DNA of 64,000 nt, taken from positions 48,782-112,781 of the forward strand of contig CABPCL010000003.1 in assembly GCA_902406115.1 (NCBI GenBank), read 5' to 3'. Source of the DNA: an uncultured Clostridium sp. (GTDB taxonomy: Bacteria; Bacillota; Clostridia; TANB77; CAG-508). The notes under the pieces were generated by a model. That model saw only the letters and a program-made list of their open reading frames with translations, had not been told where the DNA came from and searched no databases. This document shows positions 18,357 through 38,512 of this stretch, piece by piece (positions within the stretch are counted from its first letter, which is position 1; each line of letters opens with the position of its first letter). A program made the translations under genes and the position numbers.

Positions 18357-21300
18357 TTATTTTTTTAGTACTTTTCTAATGATAAATGCAATTCCACCGA
18401 TAAGGATAATTCCTATTACTGTTCCTAAGATATAGTAGATATGTGTATTACCAAATGGTGGTAATACCATTACTTCTTCTGATGAAGAAGCATCAACTTC
18501 TGCAACAGCTTCTGTTGGTTTTTGGTTTCCTACTATTGAGTAAGCCATTCTTCTTCCTGCAGTGTTGCTTGTTTCAACGATTTCTGCAATATTAATGTAT
18601 TTTAGGTTATCACTTGTATTCTCTGGTGTAATAGTTTGTGTTAATACAAGTGTTTTTTCAGCTGTAGAATCTCCTGGTTCTAATGTATCACTAAATGTTG
18701 TTGTTAAAATAGTATTATATTGTGGTTTATCATCTTTAAGAATTACACCAGCTACATCTGCATTAACAAGTTTATTGTTTATTACATCGTTTACTGTCAT
18801 AACTTGCCAATCATTTGTATTGCTATTGCTATTAAATTGTAAATTATTTGATACATAATCTATTATTCTGTTAGGTGTTGTTGTTACAGTATTTCCATGG
18901 TTCTTACCTGTATAATAGAATTCTTTGCCTTCATAATCTACTTCTCCAACATTTTTTACTTTAATTTTGTAAGTAATTTGTATTGTAGCTCCATGCATTA
19001 TTTCTTCATCCATTGATAATTGTACTAAGCCTTTTGCATTTGATCCTATAGTTGGTCTATATTTTTTATCATATATTCCATTTTTCTTATTACTATCAAT
19101 GTTATATGCTGTATTTGATTTCCAAGCAACATTGTCTGCTGATTGATTTACATCAAATAATATACTTCCATCTGCAAGTGTTACTTTAATGTTTGATACA
19201 GTTTTATTTAACTCTAATTGTGCTTTTGGTCTCTCAACTAGTCCTAAGTTTACACCTTTGATAGCATAACCTGGTGCTGGATTTTCTGTAGTAACTTGTC
19301 TGTTATATTCTATTTCAGCTACTATTGTTTTTGTATCAGCAATCATTTTGCTTCCTTCACCTTTTGCAAGTTTCTCTGCCATTTCATTTTTTACATTAGC
19401 TGCACTACTTGCATTTAGTGTTGTTCTTACATCCCACAAATCTGCTGCTCTTGATAAGTTCTCGTCACTAACATCTAAGTTATATTTATCACTGTCGCCA
19501 TAATCTTGGTATATTGTAGTTTTATAGTCTTGTCCATTATATTTTACTGTACCATCTCCGTATGTGAATCTTACAATGTAATCTCCTGCAACTACATTGC
19601 TAAATGTATATTTATTTCCATCTACAGATAATTTAGCATCTTTTACTAGTTCAAATTGTTTTTCGCTCTTTGCTCTATATAATTCTACCTTTATTCCTTC
19701 CTTAGCTATATCAATTTTTGTATCTTTATTATTGTATACTCCGTCTCCTATTACGCTGTCGTCTACTTTATTGTTTCTTGCATCTTCCCATACAGTACCT
19801 GTTATTGTTCTGTCACCTTCAACTTTAGCATTTAATCCTGGTGCTTTATCTTCATCATCTTCTTTTGGTCCATTTGATTTGTTTAAGTTATTTGGTATTG
19901 AATCTCTATCTACTCTTCCTGCTATAGTTGTGTTATTTTTTACCTCATATTCGTTTTCTCCATTATAGCATGGTAATACTGTTCCTTTTTTATAGTATGA
20001 TTTAAATGCTGCTATCTCTGCTGTGTTTGTTTTAGTTCCTGTTATTACTTTTCCGCTTTCATCTTTTTTAACTTTAAATGTTAAATATAAATATTTTGCT
20101 TCACCACTTTGAAGTTTTCCACTAAATGCAATGTCTAAAGTATTGTTTGTATTGCTATTTATATTAACTGTACTTTCATATTGACCCTTTGATATTGCTT
20201 TTGAATTCTGTAGGCTATTAACTATTCTTCCTCTTACATCAGTCAAATCATTTGTTGAATAGTTCTTACTACTTATCCATGAAAGTTCTGGTACATACGT
20301 ATATGTTGAATCATAATAATCTTTTATTTTAGTTGCTTCTCCTAACATACTCATTGATTGATTCTTTACTGCGACCTTGTATGTCACATATAATTCTAAT
20401 GTTTTACCATTTCCATTTACTCCTGTAAAGTTGTAATCTGGTTCTGCAATGGCTCTTTGATAATCTCCTTCTACAACTGTTATTGTCCAATTGCTTAAAG
20501 CTTTCTCTTTTTCAGTCTCAGATAAACTTTCGAAGTTTGAAATACTATCTTGTATGTTCTTTTTGTTATATCCATATGTTTGAGTTTTTCCATTAACCGT
20601 TACAGTTGCTGCATATACGTCTTTTTCAAGTTTCATATCAAATTCTATTCTCTTTGTTATACCAAAGTTAATATTACTTATTACTTTGTTTTCTTCTGAT
20701 TTTTTCTCTTTGTTATATATGTCTGTCTGTGCAGTTATCTTAAACCTGTCGATGTTTGTGGTATATTTTGATATATCTTCTAGTTTATATCCTTCATCAC
20801 CATCTATCTCTTCAAGTCCTTTATTTAAACTGTCTCTAGCTGCTTGTGGTTCGTAAGCTTGTGAACTTCCTGTATTTTTATTATTTGCTCTATATAATGT
20901 GTTTTCATATTCTTGTCCATTATATGTAAAAGTAATATAGTAGGCTTTATCTACATCTAATTTTGCAAATTCATAATAACCATTATTATCTGTATTTGTT
21001 GTTTGAGTACTGTTATTAGATTTATTGTGTAAAGTAACCGGAATACCAGATATTCCTTTTTCATTACTGTCTTTTAATCCATTAGCTAGAGTTTCTTTTC
21101 CTCCTCTTACATCTTCCCAAACAGTTCCGCTTAATTTTAATGTTGGTTTTAATTTTAATAATTCAAAGTCATCATCATCTTCTTGACTTGTGCTTCCATA
21201 ATTACTTCTATTTACATTTTTAGGTGTTGAATCTCTATCTGCACCATCATCATCTGTTATCTCAGCTATATTCTTTAGGTTTTGAGCTTTTGTTGCTGTG

Positions 21301-23411
21301 ACTTCACACTCAATTTGAACATCTCTATATGCTAACGTTGTTCCATTAAATGCTGCAATTTCTTTATCTTTTAAATATTCTGACACCATTGTTTTTCCAT
21401 CTTTTGATGGATTTGTCCAACCATATGTTGTATTTATTTTGCTATTTTCTGCAAGTTTTAATCCCTCTGGTAAGTAATCTGTAATTTGTGTTGCTTTTCC
21501 GTTAACATTACCTTCATTATATACTCTAATTGTATAAACTACTTTATCTCCTGTAGTTACTTCTAATGCATTCTTTGGATGTGATTTAACTGCTGTTGTT
21601 TTTGTACTGTTCTTTAATGCTGCAATTTCAGATGCTGCAATAGAAGGTACTCTAGTTACAGTTGGTGCTTTTCCATTAATTGATGTAATGAATTTTCTTA
21701 ATGCTAAGTCATATGATGGTTCATTTTTCATTTTAAGAGTTATAGTAGTTTTGTCTTTGCTTATAGTTGATGTCATTGGAGGTGTAACTACATTGTTTGT
21801 TTTAGCATTTGGATCTGCATTTTTATATGCAGTTATCGATATTGCTTTTACCATGTATTGTTTTACTCCGTTTGTGTTTGTTCCAAGTTCTTTTTCAACT
21901 CTTACTTTTATTCCTCCAGTAAATCTTTCATATCCAGATGGAGCTGCAATTTCTGTTATCCAATAATATTCTGTGTTTGCATTAGATACATTTACACTAG
22001 TTAAGTTATATACACCATTTGTGTTGTTAAATATATTTGTTGAGATTGTTTCCCACTTATTATTTCTATATTTGTATAAGTTGAATCTTGCACCTGATAA
22101 TGCTACATCTGTATTTGAAGAACTTACTTTCTTTATATCTAAATCATATTTTCCTTCTTCTATAATGTCTCCACCATTTATAGTTTCAGTTAATTTTTGT
22201 AATTCTCGGTTTGAATTTATGATATACACTGGTTGTGCATTTTCTTTTGAACCAGTATATGTTCCAACATAGTGTTTCATATTATATTCTGCAGTCATGT
22301 ATTCAAATTCAACTCTAATTTTAAAATTCGTTACCCAATTATTATCTTTTGATGTTTTACCTTTATTTGGATCATTAAACTTAATACTAAAGTTTTCTCC
22401 TGATTTTGGATACATAATTTCAGAGTTTCTATCTATCTTTTCTCCTGAAGCAGAAAAATATTTTGCTGTTTTCTGACTATTTGCTTGTGTATATGTTGAT
22501 ATTTTATTTTCACCAACTTTTGTTCCATTTTTATTGTAATATTCAACATATATACCACTAATACCTGAAAAATTAATTGTATTATTACCAACAGTTTTTG
22601 TGTAACCTGTATGTGTTACATTTAATTGACTTACTGTATATACACCATTAGATTTAGTTACAGTTGGTTCTGTAGTATTAAGTTTAAGTGTCTGACTTCC
22701 ATTATTAGCATATGCATTATACATACGTGCTTCAGTTACAAGTTTTTTTACTTCTTGTACAACTTTTCCATTTGCTTCGCCATTTACCATATCTACATCT
22801 TGAAAGTGTCCTGTTGAAGCATTCCAATTCAATTCTGTTCTATTATTTTTTATTACAGTTGCCCATGTTCCCCAACCTTGGCCTCTTATAAGCCAATATG
22901 CTTGTTGTTTTGTATACCAATCAATCAAGCTTGAAGGAAATTTATTAAACTGTGCAAATTTTTTTTCATCACTTAAGCTATTAAATCCATTTGTATATGA
23001 GCTGTAACTACCTGTAGCATCATTTACTGAAAATATGTAAGCTGCTTGTTTCTTCTGATTCTCAGTTATATTCTCCCAGCTATTTCCACTGCTTTTTTTG
23101 TATGTTATGCTCTTAGTTAATTTAGTTATAGGATAACTTCCACCTCTATACCAGTCTGCTGTTTGTGTTAAAAAACTTGTTGATCTATTATCACAATATA
23201 TGTGATAATCTCCTTTATATGGTACAAAGAAACGATTTAATTCTGATACTGTAAACTCATCTGGAAAATTGCTATTATCTGCTAATCGTTCTACTGGACT
23301 GGCAAAAATGTTACTAATTAGTTCTTCATTTTTAGTTAGATTATATATGCCAAATATAGTTAACGCTGATATTAATATTGCTAAACTTATCTTTATAAAT
23401 TTACTCTTCAT
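18357..23411 (-). CDS. Large surface adhesin A (1684 aa) with SpaA/Cna-B isopeptide-type domains, DUF11, two SdrD-B-like domains and a C-terminal membrane anchor
   Basis: A signal peptide and a GGAGG RBS are present. Cna-B/SpaA-like segments occur (LSGARFNLYKY...WITEIAAPSGYERF). A DUF11 motif is present (TGDKVVYTIRVYNEGNVNGKATQITDYLPEGLKL). SdrD-B-like segments occur (GTVWEDVRGGK...GIPVTLHN...YYEFAKL). The C-terminus reads VLPPFGNTHIYYILGTVIGIILIGGIAFIIRKVLKK. Confidence 0.8.
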   Translation of the reverse strand: MKSKFIKISLAILISALTIFGIYNLTKNEELISNIFASPVERLADNSNFPDEFTVSELNRFFVPYKGDYHIYCDNRSTSFLTQTADWYRGGSYPITKLTKSITYKKSSGNSWENITENQKKQAAYIFSVNDATGSYSSYTNGFNSLSDEKKFAQFNKFPSSLIDWYTKQQAYWLIRGQGWGTWATVIKNNRTELNWNASTGHFQDVDMVNGEANGKVVQEVKKLVTEARMYNAYANNGSQTLKLNTTEPTVTKSNGVYTVSQLNVTHTGYTKTVGNNTINFSGISGIYVEYYNKNGTKVGENKISTYTQANSQKTAKYFSASGEKIDRNSEIMYPKSGENFSIKFNDPNKGKTSKDNNWVTNFKIRVEFEYMTAEYNMKHYVGTYTGSKENAQPVYIINSNRELQKLTETINGGDIIEEGKYDLDIKKVSSSNTDVALSGARFNLYKYRNNKWETISTNIFNNTNGVYNLTSVNVSNANTEYYWITEIAAPSGYERFTGGIKVRVEKELGTNTNGVKQYMVKAISITAYKNADPNAKTNNVVTPPMTSTISKDKTTITLKMKNEPSYDLALRKFITSINGKAPTVTRVPSIAASEIAALKNSTKTTAVKSHPKNALEVTTGDKVVYTIRVYNEGNVNGKATQITDYLPEGLKLAENSKINTTYGWTNPSKDGKTMVSEYLKDKEIAAFNGTTLAYRDVQIECEVTATKAQNLKNIAEITDDDGADRDSTPKNVNRSNYGSTSQEDDDDFELLKLKPTLKLSGTVWEDVRGGKETLANGLKDSNEKGISGIPVTLHNKSNNSTQTTNTDNNGYYEFAKLDVDKAYYITFTYNGQEYENTLYRANNKNTGSSQAYEPQAARDSLNKGLEEIDGDEGYKLEDISKYTTNIDRFKITAQTDIYNKEKKSEENKVISNINFGITKRIEFDMKLEKDVYAATVTVNGKTQTYGYNKKNIQDSISNFESLSETEKEKALSNWTITVVEGDYQRAIAEPDYNFTGVNGNGKTLELYVTYKVAVKNQSMSMLGEATKIKDYYDSTYTYVPELSWISSKNYSTNDLTDVRGRIVNSLQNSKAISKGQYESTVNINSNTNNTLDIAFSGKLQSGEAKYLYLTFKVKKDESGKVITGTKTNTAEIAAFKSYYKKGTVLPCYNGENEYEVKNNTTIAGRVDRDSIPNNLNKSNGPKEDDEDKAPGLNAKVEGDRTITGTVWEDARNNKVDDSVIGDGVYNNKDTKIDIAKEGIKVELYRAKSEKQFELVKDAKLSVDGNKYTFSNVVAGDYIVRFTYGDGTVKYNGQDYKTTIYQDYGDSDKYNLDVSDENLSRAADLWDVRTTLNASSAANVKNEMAEKLAKGEGSKMIADTKTIVAEIEYNRQVTTENPAPGYAIKGVNLGLVERPKAQLELNKTVSNIKVTLADGSILFDVNQSADNVAWKSNTAYNIDSNKKNGIYDKKYRPTIGSNAKGLVQLSMDEEIMHGATIQITYKIKVKNVGEVDYEGKEFYYTGKNHGNTVTTTPNRIIDYVSNNLQFNSNSNTNDWQVMTVNDVINNKLVNADVAGVILKDDKPQYNTILTTTFSDTLEPGDSTAEKTLVLTQTITPENTSDNLKYINIAEIVETSNTAGRRMAYSIVGNQKPTEAVAEVDASSSEEVMVLPPFGNTHIYYILGTVIGIILIGGIAFIIRKVLKK

Positions 23412-23427
23412 TTTCTTCCTCCTTTCC

Positions 23428-26400
23428 TTATCTATTTTTACGTTTTTTCTTTAAGACTCTTGTTTTAATTTCATATACTCCAAATCCTAAAATTACCATT
23501 ACTCCAAATGCTATTGCAGTATATGTTATTATTTTACCTGTTACTATTGATATTGCTATATCTGCTTTTGACATATCATCTTCGTTTTCTTCTTTGTTTC
23601 CTGGTGTTGAATCTATGTCTTTTAATCCTTGTTCATTATATGCTTCATATATTTCAGCATTATTACTTAATACTCCTAAGCTGTCCTCTGTTATCTTCTT
23701 TGTTAACACTAATGTTAACTCTTTTGTTTCTCCTAGGTTGATTATCTCATTTGCTAGACTTGCATTATATACATTTCCGTTATCTGATAAGTACCAGTCT
23801 TTATTTAACTCTGTACTAAATCCTACTCCTGTTGGTAAGTAATCTACTACTTTCTTTGCATATCCTGCTACTTCTCCTTCATTTTTTATTACTATCTTGT
23901 ATTCTATTACCATACTGCTCTTTCCTACATTGCTTCCTAATACTTCTACTTTTGCTGTCTTTGAGTTATTATGCTCATCTGTTCTTGTTCCTATTGTTGG
24001 TGTTGTTAATGCTATTCTACTTACATATTTCTCTAGGCTTAAATCAAATTTCTCTGATGTATATACTCCTATGTCTATATCTCTTACATTCTCGTTTGTT
24101 ATATTTATTACGTCTGTTATTCCTGCTATTGTTCTATTTCCATCTACTGTTATATTAATGCTTATCGCATCTGAGTTTGAATATTCATCTACTCCCTTTG
24201 CTCTATATGTTGTTAATGTATATTTTGTTGCATCATATAGGAATACTACTATGTATTCCCCTTGTGGTAAGTTTGTAAACTCATATTTTCCATCGCTTCC
24301 TGTTGTTACTCTCTTCTCCTCTTTGCTCTCTGCATCTTTTACTATTGTATTGTCTGCTTTATTTAATAATATTACTGTTACGTTTGGTAATATTTCTTCG
24401 CTTGAATCCCTCTTTCCATCTTTATTGCTATCTATCCATGCTGTTCCTGTTATTTTATATCTATTGCTCTTTGGTTCATCTGGTGTTGGATTATCTGGAT
24501 TATCTGGATTTGGATTATCTGGATCTGGATTATCTGGATCTGGGTTGTCTGGATTTGGCTCGTCTGGAGTATCTGGATCTACTGGTGTCTCATGTGCATT
24601 TGAATCATATTCTATTGTATTTGTTACTATATTTGTTTTTGTTTCATCAAATCCTTGTGCTGATACTGTAGCAAAGTTTTGTATTTCTTTATCATTTTTA
24701 TCTGACAATAATTTTGCTTTTGTTGTGACTGTTATATCAATAGATTCACCACTTTCTAATTCGTTTACTAATACTTTAATGTTATTATCTCCATTATTTT
24801 TAATTGAGTTAACTATTGATCCTTTAATATATGTAATCTCTTCAAATTGTAATTCTTCTGGTAATTGATCTGTTATTACTATATCATTTGCAGTTACATT
24901 TCCAGTATTTTTTATTGTAAATTTATATGTAATAGTATTTAATTCTTTTACATACTTTGGTGTAGAAGTTAATTCAGATATTGCTAATTTTACTGTTTCT
25001 GTACCATATTCAATTGCATTAGAATATTGTTTTTCTACTCCATTTCCCTCTGCTGTAGCTATTACTTTTATTTTCCCTACATAGTCTTGTATTTCTAATT
25101 TGAAAATGACAACTTTTTCTTCACTTAATGTTCCTAAATTTATTGTAGCAATATTACTCGTTTTGTCATAATTTAATCCATCTGTTACTTCTTGGCTATT
25201 TAATATATCATCTCCAGCAGAAACAGCTTTTAATTCAACTCCTTGTGGTAATGGTATATTTACAACTGTATTATCTATATTTGCATTTTCTGATATGTTT
25301 TTTAAATAAAGTATATACCTAACTGTATCTTGTTTCTTTAATATAACTGAATCTTCTTTATCTCCAACTAATTTTAATTCAATACTTCCTTTTTGAATTT
25401 CAAACTTATATTCATTAGATGATATATCACCTGATATTTCATCTGATGTGATGCTTGCCTTATTAATAACTTCTTGTGGTAATGTTTCTGATATATTTTT
25501 ATTTATTTGAATATAGTATGAACATTCATATTTTTCCTTTGCATTAATTTTATCTATGCTAATTTCTTTAGATGTTATATTTTCTTCTATAAAAGTAGAA
25601 TCTGTATAATATCTTACAAACTTCGCATATTTAGCTAATGGTACATTTACCTTTACATTGTTTGCTGCTGTTGAACCTGTATTTTTTACAGTTATATTCA
25701 TCTTAACTATTTGTCCTTCTCTTACAACATCTGCTGTAGAAGAAAGCTCTGCTGTAAGCACTGGTCCTTGTCCTGTTGTTAACCCTATTGTTGCTGATGT
25801 TTTTGTTTCAGCAATAGTTCCTATACTTGATACGTTGTTATAGTAAACTTTATACATTTCATATGCACTATTGTTGTAATTTAATTTTTCAGGAATTATT
25901 ACATCATATGAAAATTCTATTTTACTTCCTTTTACCATATCATATCCATTTGTTACAATTAAATATGATTTTGATTGATTTGTTGCTTGTGTTGTCCATC
26001 CGTTGTTTGCATCTGAAACATCTTTTGTTGCATTTGCTTTATTTGAGTAATACACTGTATATTTCGATTTGTCAATTCCTGATAATGCAACTTCTGTTTC
26101 TAATGTTGTGCTAAATGTTGAGCCTAAAGCTTCGTCTGAATCTATTTTTGTATTATCTTTTGCAGGAATTCTTCCTAAAATAACTACATTATTAAGTGTG
26201 TTTTCATAGTTGTTTATTACTACACCATTTACTGTTGCAGTTCTTTTTGCTGCATTTACTGTAAGTGCTCCTGTAACAGCTGTTTCTGATATTGTAAATA
26301 TGTCATTTTTTCCACTTGCATAGTTTGAAATTCCATTTGCAGCAACTAATCCTGTAGGAGCTACAAAGTTTAATGCAGCTGTTGCTGTTCCAGTTTTGTT

Positions 26401-28676: not shown

Positions 28677-28764
28677 CTTACGGAATCTTGTTGTTTGAAT
28701 AAAATATTAAGTTTTCATTACAATTTTTTTACAATTTTACAAGAGTAAGCATTTACAATTTTTG
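28677..28764. promoter_or_regulatory. Conserved upstream element in the B-A operon leader (CTTACGGAA in a hairpin loop, ATTACAATTTTTTTACAATTTTACAAG, third TTACAAT)
   Basis: TTACAAT-N4-TTACAAT lies at 28718..28735 and a further TTACAAT at 28753..28759. An inverted repeat CAACAAGA..TTACGGAA..TCTTGTTG lies at 28666..28693. The element is ~250 nt upstream of the B start codon. Confidence 0.45.
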
Positions 28765-28848
28765 TCTTATTCTTCCAGCTCAAAGTGTATATTTTTCAGC
28801 ATTTATTATTCATTTGTGTTAATTTTATTTGTGCTTTTTTAATTTTTA

Positions 28849-28900
28849 AAAGTAAAAAAGATTTGAGTTCCTATAAAATATATAGGGACTCAAATCTTCT
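28849..28900 (-). terminator. Rho-independent terminator downstream of adhesin gene A'
   Basis: A 12-bp stem (GATTTGAGTCCC ... GGAACTCAAATC) is followed by TTTTTTAC on the minus strand. Confidence 0.7.
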
Positions 28901-28950
28901 AGGCATTTTGGTTTATTTACTAAATCAAAACAACTTAATTTATTTAGTTG

Positions 28951-31900
28951 TTATTTAATTATCAACACTTTTTTAATAATTAGTGTAATGCCTCCAATAA
29001 GTATTATTCCGACTACTGCTCCTAAGATATAGTAAACAATGTTTCCATTACCAAATGGTGGCAATATTACTATTCTTTCTGCAATAGAAGCATCAATTTC
29101 TGAAGGTGTATTTGCTGTTGGATCTTGATTTCCAACTATTGAGTATGCCATTCTTCTTCCAACTGTATTGCTTACTTCTACTATTTCTGCAATATTTGAA
29201 TATGTTAAGTTATCATTTTTATTTTCTGGAGTTATTACTTGTGTTAATACAAGTGTTGTGTCAATGGATTTTCCTGGTTCTAATGCTGTATTAAGAGCAT
29301 TTGTTTTTACAATAGTATTTATTTTTTGTGCTTTAGTTTTAACTGCTTGGTCTATATAGTTATCTGGGCTATTCTCCTCCTTATACAATTTGTCTAACTT
29401 AACAACTTCCCAACCAGGATTATTCTTTCCGTTAAATTGTAAATTATTTGATACATAATCTACTACTGTATTAGGTGTTGTTGTTACAGTATTTCCATGG
29501 TTCTTACCTGTATAATAGAATTCTTTGCCTTCATAATCTACTTCTCCAACATTTTTTACTGTTAATTTATACGTAATTTGTATAGATGCTCCATGCATTA
29601 TTTCTTGGTCCATTGATAATTGTATTAAGCCTCTATTTTTATTTGTATTTTGTTGCCAAGCGACATTGTCTACATTAACTCCTTGGCTTGCATCAAATAG
29701 TATACTTCCATCTGCAAGTGTTACTTTAACGTTTGATACAGTTTTATTTAGCTCTAATTGTGCTTTTGGTCTCTCAACTAGTCCTAAGTTTACACCTTTG
29801 ATAACATAACCTGGTGCTGGATTTTCTGTAGTAACTTGTCTGTTATATTCTATTTCAGCTACTATTGTTTTTGTATCAGCAATCATTTTGCTTCCTTCAC
29901 CTTTTGCAAGTTTCTCTGCCATTTCATTTTTTACATTAGCTGCACTACTTGCATTTAGTGTTGTTCTTACATCCCACAAATCTGCTGCTCTTGATAAGTT
30001 CTCGTCACTAACATCTAAGTTATATTTATCACTGTCGCCATAATCTTGGTATATTGTAGTTTTATAGTCTTGTCCATTATATTTTACTGTACCATCTCCG
30101 TATGTGAATCTTACAATATAATCTCCTGCAACTACATTGTTAAAGGTATATCTACTTCCTTTTATTGATGGACTAGCATCAACTAACTCAAATTGTTTTT
30201 CGCTCTTTGCTCTGTATAATTCTACATTTATTTTTTCTTTTTCTATATCAATTTCTGTGTCAGTTCCATTCTCATAAGTACCGTTTCCTATTACGCTGTC
30301 GTCCACTTTATTGTTTCTTGCATCTTCCCATACGGTTCCTGTTATTGTTCTATTACCCTCAACTTTAACATGTAATCCTGGTGCTTTATCTTCATCATCT
30401 TCTTGTGGTCCTTTTGATTTGTTTAAGTTATTTGGTATTGAATCTCTGTCTACTCTTCCTGCTATAGTTGTGTCATCTTTTACCTCATATTCGTTTTCTC
30501 CATTATAGTGTGGTAATACTGTTCCTTTTTTATAGTATGATTTAAATGCTGCTATCTCTGCCGTGTTTGTTTTAGTTCCTGTTATTACTTTTTCTTCGTC
30601 ATCTGTATTAACTTTAAATGTTAAGTATAGATATTTCGTTTCACCACTTTGAAGTTGTTCACTAAGTTTAATGTCTAAAGTATTATTTGTATCACTATTT
30701 ATACTTACCTTGCTTTCATTTTTCTCTTTTGATATTTCTTGCGCTTTTTCTAAACTATCAACTATTCTTCCTCTTACATTTTTTAAATCATTTGCATTAT
30801 AGTTCTTACTACTTATCCATGAAAGTTCTGATACATATGTGTAATTTTGATCATAATAATCTTTTATTTTTGTTACTTCTCCTAACATACTCATTGATTG
30901 GTTTCTTATTGCTACTTTGTATGTTACATATACTTCTAATGTTTTATCATTTCCACTTACACCTGTAAAGTTATAATCTGGCTCTGCAATTGCTCTTTGA
31001 TAATCTCCTTCTACCACTGTTATTGTCCAATTATTCAAAGCTTTTTCTTTTTCATCTTCAGGTAATTTATCAAAGTTTGGAATACTATCTTGTATGTTCT
31101 TTTTGTCATATCCATATATTTGAGTTTTTCCGTTAACTGTTACAGTTGCTGCATACACGTCCTGTTTTAGTGCCATATCAAACTCTATTCTCTTTGTTAT
31201 ACCAAAGTCAATTGTATTAATTGTAACGTTGTCAGGGCTACTTATAGCAGCATAAAAACTATAATTAAAATTATCTTCAACTTGATGTCCAGTATATGCA
31301 GAAATTGCACAATTAGTATCTGTATTAGCTTTATTTTTGTACGTTAACTTATTATAATCTCCAAAATATTCTTCAGTTTTTTCTTTCTTCTCTGTATTTG
31401 ATATCTCATTTATATTAAATCCTTCATTAAAATTATCTCTATCCTGTTTTTTCTCTGCTGCGACTGAATTTTTTCTTTTATCGTCATTTTCTCTGGTAGC
31501 CTTATACATTGTATTTTCATAATTTTGTCCGTTATATGTAAATTTAACGTAATACCATTTATCAGTTGGTAACTTTTCAAAAGTATAGGTTCCGTTACTA
31601 TTAGTCGTTGTTTCTAAAATTTTTGTACCATCTGTTTCTGGATTTGCATCATTCTTTTGATAAAGTTCAACCTTTATTCCACCTATTCCTGATTCACCAC
31701 TGTCTTTTAATCCATCAGCTAGAGTTTCTTTTCCTCCTCTTAGATCTTCCCAAACAGTTCCACCTAAATTTAGTGTTGGTCTAAATTTTAATACTTCGAA
31801 GTCATCATCATCTTCTTGACTTGTGCTTCCATAATTACCTCTATTTACATTTTTAGGTGTTGAATCTCTATCGTCTCCATCGTCAGCTGTTATTTCGGCT

Positions 31901-34851
31901 ATGTTTTTTAAATTATCTTTAGCCTTTGTTGCTATAACTTCACACTCAATTTGAACATCTTTATATGATAATTTATTATTTTTTTCATCAAATGCTGGAA
32001 TTATTTCATTTTGATCTTTTAAATAAGTGGTGGTATATGCGGTATATTCTTTATCTGAATCACCTTTTTTCCATCCATATTTTTTATTTATCGTACTATT
32101 GTCTGCTAGCTTTAATCCCGCTGGTAAGTAATCTGTAATTTCAGTTGCTGTTCCAGCTTTCTTTCCTTCATTATATATTCTAATTGTATAAACTACCTTA
32201 TCTCCTGTAGCTGCTTTTAATACTTTGCCTTCTTCGTCCTTATTATGTTTATATGTTGCTGTATATTCTTTGTTATTATTTCTATCAAATGTTCCATCTT
32301 TTAACGTTGTTAAATCTACTTTTGGCTCTCTACTTTCTTTTGGTGCTATTCCGTTAATTGATGTAATGAATTTTCTTAATGCTAAATCGTATTGTGGTTC
32401 ATTTTTCATAGTAAGTGTTATAGTTCCGTCCTTTTGATTCTTTGATACTGGACTATTTTTTGTTATTTTATTTCCGTTTTTATCTTTTACAGTTAAAGTA
32501 ATATTATCAATAACATACTTTCCTTCTGTCATATCTATTTTCTTTGGTACCTTAACCTCTATCGATCCATCAAATTTCACAAATCCATAAGGTGCTGTTG
32601 TTTCAGTTATTTTATACTCATCATCATTTAAATTAGTAATTTTTTCATTATTTAAAAGTGTACATTCTCCGTTTGAATTTGTAGTTGTGAGTTTTATTTG
32701 TTTCCAATTGCCATTTTCCTTCTTTTCAATTTTAAATACGGCTCCTGATAGAGGGTCTGAAGAATTAGTAGAACTTACTTTATTTAATTTTAAGTCATAT
32801 GATCCTTTTTGTATATTGGTCATTTTAAGATTTATGGTTGTTTCATTTCCTGTACCTTCGTTAGTTACCGGAGATGGATCAAGTTTTTTATTATTCTTAT
32901 CAAAGGCTATTATACTTACAGATTTAACCACATATTTTGCTTTATTTCCATTTTGTTTCACACCAGTTGTTACAACAACTTTGATTCCACCTGTAAATTT
33001 CGCATAATTTGTTGGTGCTTGTGTTTCTGTTATCCAATAATACAGCGTAGTTGCCTTATCAATTGTTACATTCCTTAGTAAATTATAGACACCTTTTTCA
33101 CCCTCTTTTTCAGTTTTTATAGTCTTTCCGTTTTTCTCCCAATCCCATTCATGAGTAGTAGTATTGATTTCTACCCATTTTTTTATATTAAAGTATGCTC
33201 CTGATTTTGGCTCCTCAGAAGTTCCTGCTGAGACTTTTTTAATATTGAGATTAAAACTTCCATCCTCAATTTTAGTATTTTTTATAGTTACTGTTATTTC
33301 ATCATTTGCTATTTCCACCTTAGCTATACTCTTTCTGCTTTCAGAAGCTTCTTTATCATTTTCGTCTAAAACTACCACCTTTGCACTTGCTGAAAATTTT
33401 CCATTTTTTTCAGATTTTGTTACAGTCAATTTTATCTTTTCATCAAACTTTATATATCCACTTTTTGCACTGTTTTCTGTTATATAATATACATCATTTC
33501 CTAAGGTACTTTTTGTAATTGTTACACTATTAACATAAGCCTTCCCATTTGTATTAGTCTTTACTGTTTTATTTACTTTTCCACTTATATTAAACTTAAC
33601 ATTTCCTATTGGATTTTCGTCTTTTGAAAAATCTATTTTTCTAATGTATACTTTGTATTTTCCAGTAAGAGTTGTATCTGTTATTTTTTTTATTTTTTCA
33701 CTTTTTATTTCTCTTTTTGCATCAACCACAGTTACTGGTTGTACATCATTATTAGATCCATATTTTCCCTTGCACCTAACTTCATACCCTGAAGCAATCA
33801 TATATTTAAAAGTAACATCTAATTGAAAGTCTATTTTATCTATATCACTAGTACCACTAATAATAACATAAAATTCTTCTCCGCTATCAGGATACCATAT
33901 ATCATTTTGTCTACTTATATAATCATCACCTGGTTCAAAATATTTAGGGCTCTTATTTTTACCTTTCATTTTTATCGATTTAACTTTAGCACTGCCGAAT
34001 TGTTGACCGTTTGCATATGTAATTACTTCCATATCAGACACACCAGAAAATCTATATCCATTAGTTCCTAGTGAATAATAACTCATTTTATATGGTCCAA
34101 GTATAACTTCTCCATTTTTATATTCTTTCTTAACATTTGTGCTAATCCATGTTGGATTTAATCCATTATCTTTCACCTTTTCATGATAAGTGTAATAATT
34201 AGTAGCTTCATTTACTAATTTATATATTTCACTTTTAATCGTTGTACCTGTATTCCATTTTGTAGTTTTGCCATTATCATTTACTATTATTGAACGATCA
34301 ACATATGATCCACACTCTTCATTATTTAATAGCCAATATGCATTTTGCTTTATGTACCAGTTTTTTACTGTTGCTGAAACAGTATTGTATGCATCCGATT
34401 TATAATCAGTACTGTATTTATACCATGAGGTACAGCTATCTCTTGAAAATACATATGCTTCATCCGCAGATAAATATCCAGCTTTTGTCGGTGTGTATGT
34501 AATATTGCTACCTGAATTAAGCTTATTTACTTGCCCATAATAGATTTTTCCATCTGTTGCACTCTTGTAATAACTCTCCTCTAAAGGAAAACTTTTGTCC
34601 CTGTTTGTGCAATAAATTTGATATCTTCCAGCATATGGTATAAAAAAACGATTTAATTGATTTGTATACCATGCTTCTCTTGGTACATTATAATCCTTTG
34701 CTACATCTGGAACCGTATACGCTTGTTTCTCTGTATAATTAATTCCCGTATTATTCACTTTTACACTTATTAAATTTTTTATTCCAAGTATTAATAACCC
34801 TATTAATATTGCAAATACACTAACTTTTATTATGTTTCTTTTCATTTTCAT
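28951..34851 (-). CDS. Large surface adhesin A' (1966 aa), a paralog of A with extra Cna-B/SpaA-like modules
   Basis: The N-terminal domain is shared with A (LNRFFxPYxGxYxIYCxNR ... KQ(Q/N)AYWL). There are three Cna-B-like modules. The C-terminal ~800 aa is >90% identical to A, with stretches of 100% nucleotide identity (e.g. 29738..30120 matches 19193..19575). The C-terminus reads ILPPFGNGNIVYYILGAVVGIILIGGITLIIKKVLIIK. An AAGGAGG RBS lies 10 nt after the B' stop. Confidence 0.8.
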   Translation of the reverse strand: MKMKRNIIKVSVFAILIGLLILGIKNLISVKVNNTGINYTEKQAYTVPDVAKDYNVPREAWYTNQLNRFFIPYAGRYQIYCTNRDKSFPLEESYYKSATDGKIYYGQVNKLNSGSNITYTPTKAGYLSADEAYVFSRDSCTSWYKYSTDYKSDAYNTVSATVKNWYIKQNAYWLLNNEECGSYVDRSIIVNDNGKTTKWNTGTTIKSEIYKLVNEATNYYTYHEKVKDNGLNPTWISTNVKKEYKNGEVILGPYKMSYYSLGTNGYRFSGVSDMEVITYANGQQFGSAKVKSIKMKGKNKSPKYFEPGDDYISRQNDIWYPDSGEEFYVIISGTSDIDKIDFQLDVTFKYMIASGYEVRCKGKYGSNNDVQPVTVVDAKREIKSEKIKKITDTTLTGKYKVYIRKIDFSKDENPIGNVKFNISGKVNKTVKTNTNGKAYVNSVTITKSTLGNDVYYITENSAKSGYIKFDEKIKLTVTKSEKNGKFSASAKVVVLDENDKEASESRKSIAKVEIANDEITVTIKNTKIEDGSFNLNIKKVSAGTSEEPKSGAYFNIKKWVEINTTTHEWDWEKNGKTIKTEKEGEKGVYNLLRNVTIDKATTLYYWITETQAPTNYAKFTGGIKVVVTTGVKQNGNKAKYVVKSVSIIAFDKNNKKLDPSPVTNEGTGNETTINLKMTNIQKGSYDLKLNKVSSTNSSDPLSGAVFKIEKKENGNWKQIKLTTTNSNGECTLLNNEKITNLNDDEYKITETTAPYGFVKFDGSIEVKVPKKIDMTEGKYVIDNITLTVKDKNGNKITKNSPVSKNQKDGTITLTMKNEPQYDLALRKFITSINGIAPKESREPKVDLTTLKDGTFDRNNNKEYTATYKHNKDEEGKVLKAATGDKVVYTIRIYNEGKKAGTATEITDYLPAGLKLADNSTINKKYGWKKGDSDKEYTAYTTTYLKDQNEIIPAFDEKNNKLSYKDVQIECEVIATKAKDNLKNIAEITADDGDDRDSTPKNVNRGNYGSTSQEDDDDFEVLKFRPTLNLGGTVWEDLRGGKETLADGLKDSGESGIGGIKVELYQKNDANPETDGTKILETTTNSNGTYTFEKLPTDKWYYVKFTYNGQNYENTMYKATRENDDKRKNSVAAEKKQDRDNFNEGFNINEISNTEKKEKTEEYFGDYNKLTYKNKANTDTNCAISAYTGHQVEDNFNYSFYAAISSPDNVTINTIDFGITKRIEFDMALKQDVYAATVTVNGKTQIYGYDKKNIQDSIPNFDKLPEDEKEKALNNWTITVVEGDYQRAIAEPDYNFTGVSGNDKTLEVYVTYKVAIRNQSMSMLGEVTKIKDYYDQNYTYVSELSWISSKNYNANDLKNVRGRIVDSLEKAQEISKEKNESKVSINSDTNNTLDIKLSEQLQSGETKYLYLTFKVNTDDEEKVITGTKTNTAEIAAFKSYYKKGTVLPHYNGENEYEVKDDTTIAGRVDRDSIPNNLNKSKGPQEDDEDKAPGLHVKVEGNRTITGTVWEDARNNKVDDSVIGNGTYENGTDTEIDIEKEKINVELYRAKSEKQFELVDASPSIKGSRYTFNNVVAGDYIVRFTYGDGTVKYNGQDYKTTIYQDYGDSDKYNLDVSDENLSRAADLWDVRTTLNASSAANVKNEMAEKLAKGEGSKMIADTKTIVAEIEYNRQVTTENPAPGYVIKGVNLGLVERPKAQLELNKTVSNVKVTLADGSILFDASQGVNVDNVAWQQNTNKNRGLIQLSMDQEIMHGASIQITYKLTVKNVGEVDYEGKEFYYTGKNHGNTVTTTPNTVVDYVSNNLQFNGKNNPGWEVVKLDKLYKEENSPDNYIDQAVKTKAQKINTIVKTNALNTALEPGKSIDTTLVLTQVITPENKNDNLTYSNIAEIVEVSNTVGRRMAYSIVGNQDPTANTPSEIDASIAERIVILPPFGNGNIVYYILGAVVGIILIGGITLIIKKVLIIK

Positions 34852-34861
34852 CCTCCTTTCC

Positions 34862-37800
34862 TTAGTTATTCTTTTTTCTTAAAATTCTCCTTTTAATTTC
34901 ATATACTCCATAGCCTAGCATTATCATTACTCCAAATGCTATTGCAGTATATGTTATTATTTTACCTGTTACTATTGATATTGCTATATCTGCTTTTGAC
35001 ATATCATCTTCGTTTTCTTCTTTGTTTCCTGGTGTTGAATCTATGTCTTTTAATCCTTGTTCATTATATGCTTCATATATTTCAGCATTATTACTTAATA
35101 CTCCTAAGCTGTCCTCTGTTATCTTCTTTGTTAACACTAATGTTAACTCTTTTGTTTCTCCTAGGTTGATTATCTCATTTGCTAGACTTGCATTATATAC
35201 ATTTCCGTTATCTGATAAGTACCAGTCTTTATTTAACTCTGTACTAAATCCTACTCCTGTTGGTAAGTAATCTACTACTTTCTTTGCATATCCTGCTACT
35301 TCTCCTTCATTTTTTATTACTATCTTGTATTCTATTACCATACTGCTCTTTCCTACATTGCTTCCTAATACTTCTACTTTTGCTGTCTTTGAGTTATTAT
35401 GCTCATCTGTTCTTGTTCCTATTGTTGGTGTTGTTAATGCTATTCTACTTACATATTTCTCTAGGCTTAAATCAAATTTCTCTGATGTATATACTCCTAT
35501 GTCTATATCTCTTACATTCTCGTTTGTTATATTTATTACGTCTGTTATTCCTGCTATTGTTCTATTTCCATCTACTGTTATATTAATGCTTATCGCATCT
35601 GAGTTTGAATATTCATCTACTCCCTTTGCTCTATATGTTGTTAATGTATATTTTGTTGCATCATATAGGAATACTACTATGTATTCCCCTTGTGGTAAGT
35701 TTGTAAACTCATATTTTCCATCGCTTCCTGTTGTTACTCTCTTCTCCTCTTTGCTCTCTGCATCTTTTACTATTGTATTGTCTGCTTTATTTAATAATAT
35801 TACTGTTACGTTTGGTAATATTTCTTCGCTTGAATCCCTCTTTCCATCTTTATTGCTATCTATCCATGCTGTTCCTGTTATTTTATATCTATTGCTCTTT
35901 GGTTCATCTGGTGTTGGATTATCTGGATTATCTGGATTTGGGTTATCTGGGTCTGGATTGTCTGGATTTGGGTTATCTGGGTCTGGGTTGTCTGGATCTG
36001 GATTGTCTGGATCTGGATTGTCTGGATCTGGGTTGTCTGGATCTGGGTTGTCTGGATCTGGATTGTCTGGATCTGGGTTGTCTGGTTTTGGATTGTCTGG
36101 GTTTGGATCATTTGGTGTAGCATTATATTCTATAATATTTGTTACTGTATTTGTATTTATTTTTTCAACTCCATATGCACTTACAGTTAGATAATTTTGA
36201 ACCTCTTTATCATTTTCGTCTGGTAATAAATCTGCCATTACTTTAATTGTTATATTATATATTTCTCCAGGTTCTAAAATACCAAGTGTTAAAGCTACAT
36301 CGTTTTGGTTACTATTATTAGTAGATAATATCTCTTCCTCACCTTTTTTTACTTGAATTTCTTGTATTTTAACACCTTCTGGTAAGTTATCTTCTATAAA
36401 TACACTAGAAGCACTGATTTCTCCAATATTTTGTATACTAAAAGTATATGTAAATTCATTCTCTTCTTTTACATATCTTGGTGATGTTTTTAATTCAGAA
36501 ACCTTTAATTGAACAATCTTAACTGTATTGATAAGTATATTTGAGTAATGCTTTTCAACTCCATCTGCTAACGCACTTGCTATAACCTTTACTACAGTCT
36601 CTTCTGATGATTTTACCTCTGTTTCAAATGTCATAACTTTGCTATCAATTAATGTTTCTATATTTGCCGTTATGGTGTTTGTTGTTTCATCATAAGATAT
36701 CGCATCTTGTATTTCCTCTTCATCCGATATTATATTTTCTATAGATCCTTGTTTATATATTAATCCATTTGGAAGCTGTATTGTTACAATTGTATTATCT
36801 ATACTTTCTTTATCTGATATGTTAGTTAAATATAGTCTATATTCAATATTATTTTTGGGTTTTAATACAGTATCTTCTGCTTTATCAGAAACCAATCTCA
36901 TATCAATTGATCCCTTTTGTATATTAAATTTAATTTTATTTGATAATATAACATCCTCTGTTTCACTAAAAGTTATACTAGCTTTATTTATTATCTCCTT
37001 TGGTAAAGTATTTGATATATCTTTATTTATTTGAATATAATATGAATAATTATATTCATTACCTACTTTTATCTCATTTACTTCATAAGTTTGTTCTACC
37101 ATATCTACTCTTTCATGGAATTGATTTCCTGTAGAATAATATACAAACTTTGCACATTCTGGTAATGGCACAGTTACCTTAACGTTAGTTGCTGCAACTG
37201 ATCCAGTGTTTTTTATTACCAAATTCATTTTAACAATTTGGCCTTCTCTTATAGTGTCTACTGTAGAAGAAAGTTCAGCTGTTAGTTCTGGGCCTTGTCC
37301 TGTTGTTAATTCTACTACTGGCGATACCTTTGTTTCTGCCATAGTTCCTACACTAGATACATTGTTATAGTAAACTTGGTACATTTCACTTGAGCTGTTT
37401 TTGTATTCAAGATTTTCTGGTATTTCTATACCATATGATAATTCTATTTTACTTCCTTTGTTCATCTCATATCCATTTGTTACAACCAAATATGACTTTG
37501 ATTGATTTGTTGCTTGTGTTGTCCAACCATTGTTTGCATCTGAAATATCTTTTGTTGCATCTGCTTTGTTTGAATAATAAATTGTGTATTTTGATGAATC
37601 GATTCCATTAAGACCAACTTGAGTTGTTAAGGTTGTGCTAAATGTTGACCCTAAGTTTTCATCTGAATTTGTTTTCTTGTTATCTTTTGCAGGTATTCTT
37701 CCTAAGATTACTAAATCTTGAAGTGAGTTATCATAATTGTTTATTATTAGCCCTTTTACATTTGAACTTCTTTTTTGAGCTTTTACAGCAAGTTCCCCTT

Positions 37801-38512
37801 TAACATTTGATTCTGTTATTGTAAATACTTCTGCTTTTCCTTCTGCATATTGTGATATAGCATTTGTTGTAATTAGTCCATTAGGAGCAACAAATTTTAT
37901 TTCTGTTGATACTGTTTCTTCACTAGTTATATTTTTTGTATTTTCGTTTGTATATTTCATTACTACTTTGCTTTTGTTGTCTGGTGTTAATTTATTAACA
38001 GTTAAGTCTGTGTTGAATATTATAATTGTTCCTCTGTATGCTGCATCTATTGTATGTTCAGTTTGTGTTCCCTCTAACACAGCTTTTATAACTTTTGATC
38101 CATTTTCTTCTTGAACGTTTGCACTTTTTATTGATAGTCCGTTTTCCATCAAAATATCATAATTTTTTAAGTTCACGCTTTCTATGTATGATGGTAATAC
38201 TATCTTTAGCGTAGGATTTTTGTACAAAGCATAGTCTTTATTTGAAGTATCTAAAATTGCTCTTATCTCTACGTTTTCATTTTTTACTACCGTAGTTAAC
38301 TCAGTTCTATTTAGTTGTAGCTCAGCAATAGAATGTGATTTATTTTGATTCTCTGCTGTGCCTTGAGTACTTGCTGTTACTGTGGTTTGTTCTTGTGATT
38401 GAGTTGATTCTTGTGCATATGAAATGCTATTATTCCCAAGTACTACTAAATTTGACGCCATTAGAACTGTCACTAATAGTAATATTAATGATTTCCTTAA
38501 AAATTTGTACAT
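34862..38512 (-). CDS. Surface protein B' (~1216 aa), an N-terminally shorter paralog of B
   Basis: The start is taken at MYKFLRKSLILLLVTVLMA (signal peptide) with a GGGGGA RBS; the track ORF extends 42 codons further into the leader. The last ~1.05 kb matches the 3' end of B almost exactly (copies offset by 11428 nt). The PDN linker is expanded. Confidence 0.75.
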   Translation of the reverse strand: MYKFLRKSLILLLVTVLMASNLVVLGNNSISYAQESTQSQEQTTVTASTQGTAENQNKSHSIAELQLNRTELTTVVKNENVEIRAILDTSNKDYALYKNPTLKIVLPSYIESVNLKNYDILMENGLSIKSANVQEENGSKVIKAVLEGTQTEHTIDAAYRGTIIIFNTDLTVNKLTPDNKSKVVMKYTNENTKNITSEETVSTEIKFVAPNGLITTNAISQYAEGKAEVFTITESNVKGELAVKAQKRSSNVKGLIINNYDNSLQDLVILGRIPAKDNKKTNSDENLGSTFSTTLTTQVGLNGIDSSKYTIYYSNKADATKDISDANNGWTTQATNQSKSYLVVTNGYEMNKGSKIELSYGIEIPENLEYKNSSSEMYQVYYNNVSSVGTMAETKVSPVVELTTGQGPELTAELSSTVDTIREGQIVKMNLVIKNTGSVAATNVKVTVPLPECAKFVYYSTGNQFHERVDMVEQTYEVNEIKVGNEYNYSYYIQINKDISNTLPKEIINKASITFSETEDVILSNKIKFNIQKGSIDMRLVSDKAEDTVLKPKNNIEYRLYLTNISDKESIDNTIVTIQLPNGLIYKQGSIENIISDEEEIQDAISYDETTNTITANIETLIDSKVMTFETEVKSSEETVVKVIASALADGVEKHYSNILINTVKIVQLKVSELKTSPRYVKEENEFTYTFSIQNIGEISASSVFIEDNLPEGVKIQEIQVKKGEEEILSTNNSNQNDVALTLGILEPGEIYNITIKVMADLLPDENDKEVQNYLTVSAYGVEKINTNTVTNIIEYNATPNDPNPDNPKPDNPDPDNPDPDNPDPDNPDPDNPDPDNPDPDNPDPDNPNPDNPDPDNPNPDNPDNPTPDEPKSNRYKITGTAWIDSNKDGKRDSSEEILPNVTVILLNKADNTIVKDAESKEEKRVTTGSDGKYEFTNLPQGEYIVVFLYDATKYTLTTYRAKGVDEYSNSDAISINITVDGNRTIAGITDVINITNENVRDIDIGVYTSEKFDLSLEKYVSRIALTTPTIGTRTDEHNNSKTAKVEVLGSNVGKSSMVIEYKIVIKNEGEVAGYAKKVVDYLPTGVGFSTELNKDWYLSDNGNVYNASLANEIINLGETKELTLVLTKKITEDSLGVLSNNAEIYEAYNEQGLKDIDSTPGNKEENEDDMSKADIAISIVTGKIITYTAIAFGVMIMLGYGVYEIKRRILRKKNN
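35912..36110. repeat. Expanded tandem 9/18-nt repeat array encoding the (PDNPD)n linker in B' (~11 units)
   Basis: The track translation PDNPDPDNPDPDNPDPDNPD... shows the array is roughly twice as long as in B. Confidence 0.8.

Follow-up and report, generated by a model that had tools for sequence, protein, structure and literature searches.

Two tandem copies of a two-gene operon encoding giant surface proteins of predicted fibrillar type lie at positions 18357-38512 of the window analysed here, a stretch of 64,000 nucleotides (nt) from the genome of an uncultured Clostridium sp. (GenBank assembly GCA_902406115.1, contig CABPCL010000003.1). Each copy, referred to below as a cassette, consists of a gene of B type followed by a gene of A type. 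All four large open reading frames (ORFs) are on the minus strand, in the order B2-A2, a 480-nt spacer and B1-A1, with 16 nt between B1 and A1 and 10 nt between B2 and A2, which agrees with the tandem B-A cassettes described in the initial annotation of this DNA. Results of our analysis indicate that the cassettes are paralogous operons whose 3′ modules have probably been gene-converted, apparently by ordinary RecA-type recombination, while the tips of their products differ. Comparison of the paralogs within and between lineages shows repeated overwriting of the wall-proximal 3′ modules, apparently through non-reciprocal homologous recombination between direct repeats. According to the model that we favour, an ancestral B-A operon would be present as two tandem paralogous copies in a low-GC gut Clostridium akin to Clostridium sp. 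CAG:508, and recombination of RecA type between the paralogs, not programmed switching, would be the mechanism involved.

Probable homogenisation of the 3′ regions

In the B genes, the 3′ repeat noticed earlier at a constant offset of 11428 nt was confirmed and comprises an exact match of 1,017 nt (Table 1). The chance of such a run at a background identity of about 70% is, by our own arithmetic, 0.7^1017, i.e., about 1e-158. Upstream of this tract the nucleotide identity of B1 and B2 is only 57-80%, and the codon-level profile reveals that 30-50% of the codons conserved at the amino acid (aa) level differ there synonymously. Within the tracts, no synonymous difference was found over about 1 kb of B (~340 codons) and about 0.4 kb of A. 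The B tract encodes the end of the PDN linker, the SdrD_B domain, a CLIPPER-like domain, the SIVTG motif and the start of the hydrophobic tail. Its 5′ boundary falls within the low-complexity PDN repeat array, and the identity ends inside the B tail; the spacer that follows and the start of the A gene are only about 70% identical between the cassettes.

The 3′ region of the A genes is a patchwork. The initial annotation had described the last ~2 kb of both A genes as nearly identical, which is true of a core of 449 nt, with 313 nt (19265-19577) as its longest exact run, but not of the wider block of about 1.6 kb (19110-20689 vs. 29644-31232), which is 88.7% identical, or of the last ~660 nt (18370-19032), which are 76% identical. 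At one point of this region the amino acid identity dips to 22%. An exact match quoted previously between 19193-19575 and 29738-30120 was 5 nt out of register; at the true offset, 10540, 381 of the 383 bases match. Both blastn and the codon-level profile indicate that the cassettes form a mosaic and not two identical halves.

The 5′ portions of the cassettes differ in sequence as well as in domain number, as had been proposed. B2 is devoid of about 500 N-terminal residues of B1, and the cores of B1 and B2 have about 61% amino acid identity. Residues 1-420 of A1 are about 33% identical to those of A2, which in addition contains two extra modules of about 110-125 aa each.

Occurrence of the duplication in independent assemblies

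Eleven loci of the same species (L037-L047), found by exact-protein look-ups in independent ENA metagenome assemblies, show colinearity to the window (99.7-99.97% identity), with the differences between the paralogs preserved. A look-up with the 1964-aa A2 protein returned the complete minC-to-A1 layout again, and the same gene order was seen in at least 14 retrieved loci, assembled by SPAdes-style and by other pipelines. A layout that recurs in 11 or more independent assemblies is not a one-off artefact, and our conclusion is that this species does carry the duplication, and in fixed form. No assembly has lost the isolated single-base differences by which the A copies can be told apart; this argues against a wholesale collapse of the repeats and indicates that the assemblers were not simply merging near-identical paralogs.

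A search of strains for copy-number change or chimeric junctions resulted in the identification of two chimeric contigs (P0010/L062 and P0011/L063), in which the 5′ part of A1 is joined to the 3′ part of A2. The first of them (L062:130-15190, coverage 4.9x) also contains the reciprocal gene, with the 5′ part of A2 and the 3′ part of A1, after B1. We did not count these contigs as real recombinants: L062 is an alternative walk through two repeats at low coverage, and the chimera of L063 (L063:156-9769) is on a scaffold of 9.8 kb. They may represent a real swap of tips between the cassettes or a swap of paths by the assembler. Deletion or amplification mediated by the repeats, as suggested in the initial annotation, is possible.

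Probable conversion tracts in related lineages and strains

The lineage of the window (w) was compared with lineage x (L058 and L059, about 97.8% nucleotide identity to the window) and lineage y (L060). In the neighbour-joining tree of the B core (B1 aa 560-1290), the B2 protein of the window is placed outside the group formed by wB1, xB1, oB and yB1, with 61% vs. 77-97% amino acid identity. In the tree of the C-terminal module it is identical to wB1 and nested inside its own lineage. The two trees are thus incongruent: the B paralogs group by genome in the tract, unlike in the core. The split of B1 and B2, as dated by the core tree, is thereby shown to predate the separation of the sampled sister lineages. 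L060 has a B1 gene about 91% identical to that of the window and an A2 protein only 58% identical, and the identity is 99.6-100% between its own B1 and B2 tracts but 97.3-97.7% between these and the tracts of the window.

The A genes differ between the lineages in the positions of the tracts. At 19300-19600, the A1 and A2 genes of the window are 98-100% identical, while those of lineage x are 60-84% identical. In the region of about 21100-20400, in turn, A2 of lineage x is 89-96% identical to A1, while the copies of the window are 56-67% identical. The A1 orthologs of L058 and L059 are 92-100% identical to A1 of the window throughout. As A2 of lineage x has unrelated sequence (59-85%) in the part that corresponds to 29691-30139, it must be the A2 gene of the window lineage that received A1 sequence, and the lineage-specific positions of the tracts indicate that A2 received A1 sequence independently in different lineages. 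Relatives were checked for the same gene pairs free of recombination tracts, and this is not what they contain; the sister lineages show other A1/A2 tracts.

Single-nucleotide polymorphisms (SNPs) between strains of the same species are concentrated, at this locus, within the shared tracts. The same six SNPs are present in B1 and B2 of L047, and the same five in A1 and A2 of both L041 and L043. About 22 sites vary between strains in the B tract, about ten distinct haplotypes were counted, and the haplotypes of B1 and B2 are equal in every strain in which both copies are seen. The absence of synonymous differences, the conflicting B trees and the lineage-specific A tracts bear out the recombination or gene conversion that the initial annotation had proposed.

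Conservation of the locus in the clade

A scan of species-representative genomes revealed 23 related loci, all from uncultured gut Clostridia labelled as 'uncultured Clostridia bacterium' or Clostridium sp. CAG:508; one of the related genomes is circular, of 1.57 Mb. In all loci containing both genes B is directly followed by A, and wherever the flanks were captured the pair is located between PBP2/minC and spoIIE. A single pair is present in some of the species, two or more in others. Judging from this conserved order, the B-A operon is ancestral and syntenic in the clade. The nearest relative with a single cassette (L054, about 80% nucleotide identity) keeps full-length genes similar to B1 and A1. 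As B2 branches outside the B1 orthologs, either B2-A2 disappeared from the lineage of L054 in a clean loss or import from another clade member is the source of the second cassette.

Alternative explanations

One could suppose that no conversion took place, and that the 3′ identity results from very strong purifying selection or from a very recent duplication with unusually fast 5′ divergence. It is true that, across species, B and A are most conserved in their C-terminal modules. However, selection at the protein level leaves synonymous differences, and the tracts have none in about 340 codons, vs. 30-50% of the conserved codons in the flanks; in the B core tree B1 and B2 separate earlier than the lineages w, x, o and y do, yet within a lineage their 3′ modules are identical, and the positions of the tracts vary by lineage. 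We find this explanation hardly credible. The points that weigh against gene conversion concern the assemblies and the rest of the clade. The retrieved assemblies of this species and its sister lineages all appear, from their contig names, to be short-read metagenomic ones. Merging of bubbles would also give a perfect identity of 1-kb repeats and the same haplotype in both copies, and certain contigs break k-1 bases into the B repeat (L045/L046 at 23551, 54 nt beyond the repeat edge, and L053 at 23614, 117 nt beyond it, the k-1 signature of an assembler break). The alternative path carried by L062 and L063 indicates that the repeat graph can be mis-traversed. In tandem-cassette species elsewhere in the clade, including a circular HiFi metagenome-assembled genome (MAG; L008), the 3′ ends of the paralogs are only 68-77% identical, which shows that the locus is homogenised episodically and not as a rule. 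It might thus be asked whether the tracts, or even the duplication, are a repeat collapsed or copy-pasted by short-read assemblers, with one cassette or two fully diverged copies in the actual genome. This seems to us very improbable, as at least 14 loci from different pipelines have one gene order, the single-base differences of the A copies survive in all assemblies, and the diverged, unique 5′ parts (A tips and B cores) each require a 3′ end of their own, while no separate diverged 3′ end occurs among the contigs retrieved. Furthermore, the A2 tract of lineage x was assembled as a clearly different sequence, and hence diverged copies are resolved where they are present.

Gene conversion between the cassettes is compatible with more than one origin of the second copy. 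B2-A2 could be a homologous cassette of another clade member that was inserted beside the resident one, with the 3′ ends homogenised later. The single cassette of L054, with its full-length B1-like and A1-like genes, is not what a simple repeat-mediated deletion would give; the position of wB2, which branches outside the w, x, o and y orthologs of B1, and the great diversity of A2-type alleles also point in this direction. Nevertheless, among the sampled species wB2 is still nearest to the B1 clade of this lineage, no mobile-element genes flank the cassette, and many species of the clade have tandem pairs, as would be the case if local duplication were recurrent. Import is therefore possible but unlikely, and it would alter only the origin of the second copy, not the finding of conversion. 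The initial annotation had further seen in the locus a layout expected for surface-antigen variation or a cassette system. In a programmed system of antigenic or phase variation, one operon would be an expression site and the other a donor, and tips would be shuffled for immune evasion or receptor switching. Direct repeats do flank the variable A tip, with the B tract upstream and the A tract downstream, which in principle allows swapping of tips; a reciprocal swap of precisely this kind is seen in L062, three strains have a disrupted A2 (two of them at poly-A runs), and A2 alleles are only 58-69% identical at the amino acid level between lineages. Yet both operons are complete, with start codons and ribosome-binding sites and with a promoter-like site before B1; there are no silent donors or truncated cassettes, and no extra partial copies in the region 15000-42000. 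No recombinase, invertase or known initiating element was found among the scanned neighbours, which are housekeeping genes (mre, minC and spoIIE). The tip positions are fixed across the 11 same-species strains, the exchanged tracts are stalk and anchor modules and not the exposed variable region, the swap in L062 is the product expected of a wrong assembly path, and the related HiFi genome (L008) has no homogenised flanks. We thus consider a programmed variation system improbable.

Predicted thioester tips and stalks of A proteins

The statement that the locus does not match any named one was too strong, since A1 and A2 are predicted to belong to the TIE-type fibrillar adhesins with thioester domains (TEDs). 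We assign them to this group because of motif and fold evidence: A is likely a TIE-type fibrillar adhesin with a Class II-like thioester tip, in which the thioester bond is predicted. TEDs have the motifs [YFL]CΦζ and TQxxΦW, and their bond-forming Gln lies later, in a weak ΦQζΦΦ motif (PMC6194298). The A1 tip comprises an N-lobe with Cys73 (YCDN) and KQQAYW (Q169, W173), a beta-sandwich insert and a long terminal hairpin with Gln393 (AQPVY). The relevant motifs of the A2 tip are C81, KQNAYW and VQPVT.

In the alignment of 16 orthologous A N-terminal regions the mean column identity is 21%, and no residue is invariant except one Cys, within YC(I/V)E, and one Gln, within KQxA(I/Y)W. The putative thioester Cys is conserved in all sequences of this alignment (16/16) and of a smaller one (11/11), usually as YC(I/V)(E/Q), in agreement with the TED Cys motif. 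The window proteins themselves fit this motif less well, which speaks against the assignment: in IYCDN of A1 and IYCTN of A2 the residue after Cys is polar, not hydrophobic. The TQxxΦW motif is recognisable, with K or V replacing T; its Gln is invariant in both alignments and its Trp in that of 11 sequences. The candidate for the late Gln forms a conserved column (AQPVY, VQPVT, QQPIM, CQGPI) where the last long strand begins; 2 of the 11 sequences stop short of this column. The AlphaFold2 model of A1 residues 36-418, based on the 11-sequence alignment, has a mean pLDDT (predicted local distance difference test) of 70, with a confident beta-sandwich and long terminal hairpin and a weak N-lobe. 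A Foldseek comparison of this model with the PDB gave EfmTIE86-TED (6fwy, 4.7e-7) and BaTIE (6fwv, 4.5e-6), and all matches at E <= 1e-3 were Class II TEDs.

Sequence searches were less informative. No Pfam family, TED included, matches any of the 16 A N-terminal regions at E <= 1, the A tip has no match in Pfam and NCBIfam, and a PDB profile search ranked SaTIE-TED first, at only E = 0.66. Word-indexed homolog searches with the A1 N-terminal region, alone or as a 16-sequence profile, returned only 2-3 fragments; usable relatives of A were obtained with full-length A1 as a query.

Downstream of the tip, A1 contains one SpaA/CnaB domain, a CLIPPER domain, two SdrD_B-like modules (GTVWED at aa 762 and 1205), a CLIPPER-like domain and the LPPFG tail. 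The A2 stalk consists of SpaA/CnaB modules (two stretches matched by Pfam), CLIPPER, SdrD_B and the LPPFG tail. SpaA/prealbumin and DUF11/CLIPPER domains exceed the Pfam cut-offs in both proteins, as in stalks built of immunoglobulin-like domains of isopeptide type. The DUF11 family is now named CLIPPER in Pfam and is a CnaA-like, isopeptide cross-linked stalk domain of fibrillar adhesins (PMC12617251). A would accordingly carry a reactive Class II thioester tip on a stalk of SpaA/CnaB, CLIPPER/DUF11 and SdrD_B domains with a tail derived from an LPXTG signal, and the two tips (~33% identical) would be presented on interchangeable stalk and anchor modules. As the two thioester tips differ, they probably provide two ligand specificities.

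The TIE proteins, i.e., BaTIE of Bacillus anthracis, SaTIE of Staphylococcus aureus and EfmTIE86 of Enterococcus faecium (PMC6194298, PMC4450167), resemble A in the motifs of the N-terminal thioester tip, in a candidate late Gln, located on the long terminal hairpin that follows a beta-sandwich insert, in the CnaB-type isopeptide stalk and in a tail composed of a motif, a hydrophobic stretch and basic residues. In contrast to them, A is 3-4 times larger, its stalk additionally contains CLIPPER/DUF11 and SdrD_B domains, it is not matched by the Pfam TED family, its tail has LPPFG and not LPXTG, and its thioester is predicted only. Moreover, A genes invariably have a B gene upstream as their partner, and there is no sortase nearby.

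The A2 gene varies among strains. It is interrupted in three of them by independent mutations, namely an extra A in an A6 run in L039, GGA>TGA in L041 and a frameshift near an A8 run in L059 (L059:600-900), with 30532 and 31008 as the corresponding window positions; A1, B1 and B2 are intact wherever sampled. These interruptions could reflect decay of an extra copy, switching based on slippage or homopolymer sequencing errors. In A2 of L038, about 38 differences are clustered in about 750 nt (31718-32461), while the strain is otherwise 99.7% identical. Only about one third of the variant bases match A1, and the cluster looks like an imported allele segment, not like conversion by A1.

B proteins

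B1 is a full-length ortholog of the single B gene of related species. Its N-terminal region is followed by three CLIPPER/DUF11 repeats, the PDN linker, SdrD_B, a CLIPPER-like domain (a weak DUF11 match) and the SIVTG tail. B2 contains CLIPPER/DUF11 repeats, a long PDN linker, SdrD_B, a CLIPPER-like domain and a tail with SIVTG, a hydrophobic stretch and basic residues. The PDN array is twice as long in B2 as in B1. A length polymorphism of 15 nt (5 aa) occurs at 24544 in the PDN linker of B1, and strains accordingly have B1 of 1680 or 1685 aa.

No tip can be recognised in B. Its N-terminal 870 aa match nothing in Pfam or NCBIfam, and a PDB profile search gave no meaningful result; they are well conserved all the same, with a mean column identity of 47% across 12 species. 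At E <= 1e-3 the B family comprises 1,359 clusters (50% identity), and at E <= 1e-30 it comprises 662. Its members are mostly of about 1,650-1,700 aa, and the match begins directly after the signal peptide. The N-terminal region of B1 is encoded at 26692-28371, with P0023-P0172 as family members. B thus belongs to a large uncharacterised family of predicted surface proteins; it is the conserved, ~1,670-aa partner of A.

C-terminal tails and the question of a sortase

The transmembrane anchor assigned earlier to the proteins is instead a tail that resembles a sorting signal (LPPFG in A, SIVTG in B), with a hydrophobic stretch and a basic end. The conserved three-part layout of the tail suggests its derivation from an LPXTG signal. 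Tails of B type conform across relatives to [SG][IL][VTK]TG. Those of A type have LPPFG, IPPFG or IPPYG in about 15 species (loci L001-L023) and LPPTG, TPPTG or IPPTG in more distant relatives, and thus Thr was replaced by Phe or Tyr, which was then conserved. The LPXTG anchor model TIGR01167 does not match A1 and A2 (LPPFG) or B1 (SIVTG) of the window; distant A orthologs with (L/T)PPTG reach it with 15.9 and 20.9 bits at a cut-off of 15.9.

Sortases cleave after the Thr of their motif. The derivation from a canonical signal is thus challenged by LPPFG, which has no Thr, and by the absence of any TLxTC-type sortase signature among ORFs of at least 120 aa in the 64-kb window and in loci L001-L036. 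We know of no sortase motif with an aromatic residue at the Thr position. A sortase-assembled pilus locus was considered and rejected, as there is no adjacent class C sortase, the neighbours being radC, mreBCD, PBP2, minC and spoIIE. Sortase-assembled pili with a thioester tip, such as those of Streptococcus pyogenes with Cpa/Spy0125 (PDB 2xi9), differ from the locus described here in having an adjacent pilus sortase, and their pilins are far smaller than A and B.

A rather doubtful proposal is that B and A form an undescribed two-protein apparatus of covalent adhesion, with wall-proximal co-assembly and non-canonical LPPFG/xxTG anchoring, in which stalk conversion is selected for cross-compatibility. 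B and A would then co-assemble through their wall-proximal SdrD_B and CLIPPER-like modules, and the Thr-less LPPFG and the xxTG signals would be handled by some other enzyme. If this were true, stalk conversion would let different thioester tips sit on one shared base.

Comparison with other surface protein loci

The pattern observed here is real but familiar in bacterial surface genes, and it reveals no new mechanism. Its nearest parallels are the Class II TIE proteins as regards protein architecture and, as regards evolution, the babA/babB gene conversion of Helicobacter pylori and tandem paralog clusters of Gram-positive adhesins or lipoproteins. The sdrC-sdrD-sdrE genes of S. aureus are single genes that encode tandem paralogous adhesins with an MSCRAMM A domain, an SD-repeat linker and a canonical LPXTG. 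They resemble the present locus in that ligand-binding N-termini that differ are combined with B-domain stalks that are alike, with a linker of low complexity (of dipeptide type in Sdr) and with a wall anchor. The locus analysed here differs in its thioester tips (predicted), its PDN-type linker and the presence of a B and A pair in each unit. The B domains of the Sdr family are described in PMC6232131. In the tandem lpl cluster of S. aureus (PMC2568036), as here, the unit of exchange is smaller than a gene. However, the conserved unit of lpl runs from the 3′ end of a gene through the spacer to the 5′ end of the next gene, while here the identity stops inside the B tail. The babA/babB(/babC) genes of Helicobacter pylori are likewise paralogous adhesin genes with intragenomic recombination or gene conversion and chimeras (PMC3444412, PMC4552749). 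They encode outer-membrane proteins of a Gram-negative bacterium and are placed at dispersed loci, in contrast to the tandem two-gene operons described here. Recombination of bab genes was shown experimentally to change expression and binding during infection (PMC3444412, PMC4552749), whereas here only evolutionary footprints are seen.

The locus documents concerted evolution in gut bacteria that are known solely from metagenomes. It suggests a likely role for the largest surface proteins of this group, namely that of predicted covalent adhesins of thioester type with strain-variable tips, and it offers concrete targets for studies of attachment to host or particles in Clostridia with reduced genomes. 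It also adds to the annotation of four ORFs of 1,200-2,000 aa that have only generic domain matches and in which the A tip and the N-terminal part of B match no family. Additionally, it is a warning with regard to MAG quality: kilobase repeats break or mis-join short-read contigs exactly here, which may explain why this region is missing or chimeric in reference MAGs.

Layout of the locus and neighbouring genes

The features of the locus are collected in Table 1. Pfam searches agree with the DUF11, SdrD-B and Cna-B domains assigned initially: SdrD_B, DUF11/CLIPPER and SpaA/prealbumin (CnaB-like) domains are present in 4/4 proteins. B2 starts with the ATG at 38512, which is preceded by a GGGGGG ribosome-binding site. 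The start of A2 according to gene callers is the ATG at 34845, which gives a protein of 1964 aa.

Table 1. Genes, repeat tracts and predicted protein regions of the two B-A cassettes (positions in the 64,000-nt window)
Feature	Position	Strand	Remarks
A1	18357-23411	(-)	A-type gene nearer spoIIE, 1684 aa
B1	23428-28470	(-)	B-type gene nearer spoIIE, 1680 aa
Inter-cassette spacer	28471-28950	(-)	480 nt
A2	28951-34851	(-)	upstream A-type gene, 1966 aa
B2	34862-38512	(-)	upstream B-type gene, 1216 aa, signal peptide present
Putative B conversion tract, copy 1	23497-24513	(-)	exact 1,017-nt match to copy 2; B1 aa 1320-1658
Putative B conversion tract, copy 2	34925-35941	(-)	B2 aa 858-1196
Putative A conversion tract, copy 1	19151-19599	(-)	5 mismatches in 449 nt vs. 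copy 2; A1 aa 1271-1421
Putative A conversion tract, copy 2	29691-30139	(-)	A2 aa 1571-1721
PDN-linker array of B1	24478-24578	(-)	15-nt period
PDN-linker array of B2	35915-36115	(-)	15-nt period, ~12 copies
Class II thioester domain region of A1	22158-23306	(-)	A1 aa 36-418; predicted from motifs and fold
Thioester-domain-like tip of A2	33667-34731	(-)	A2 aa 41-395; ~30% identical to A1 tip
Sorting-signal-like tail of A1	18360-18464	(-)	LPPFG, hydrophobic stretch, RKVLKK
Sorting-signal-like tail of A2	28954-29064	(-)	LPPFG; equivalent of A1 tail
Sorting-signal-like tail of B1	23431-23550	(-)	SIVTG, hydrophobic stretch, basic tail
Sorting-signal-like tail of B2	34865-34978	(-)	SIVTG; equivalent of B1 tail

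The inter-cassette spacer contains the best sigma-70-like match on the minus strand, TTGAAA-17-TATAAT at 28532-28504, which is upstream of B1 and is a consensus match only, in AT-rich DNA. A scan for promoters and terminators carries no information in DNA of this composition (the GC content of the window is 29%), with 105 promoter-like sites vs. 117 expected.

Upstream of the cassettes there are radC, mreB, mreC, mreD, a gene of a PBP2-type transpeptidase and minC; downstream there are spoIIE and a gene of a WG-repeat protein. On the minC side (38513-39889), minD and minE do not come after minC on its strand; their place is taken by the adhesin locus and small ORFs. The small ORFs, three in number and of 52, 148 and 115 aa, are located antisense between minC and B2 (38823-39789, plus strand). 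They have no family match except a faint YtzH-like one. The larger two (148 and 115 aa) are also called in L054, which has a single cassette, as genes of 146 and 111 aa.

Another giant surface protein, of 1862 aa, is encoded on the minus strand at 2888-8476. It has a region of leucine-rich repeats of BspA type, about 14 tandem immunoglobulin-like modules with BNR-like and CHB_HEX_C-like signatures, and a C-terminal type I dockerin. The length of this protein varies by strain, from 1824 to 1919 aa in related contigs.

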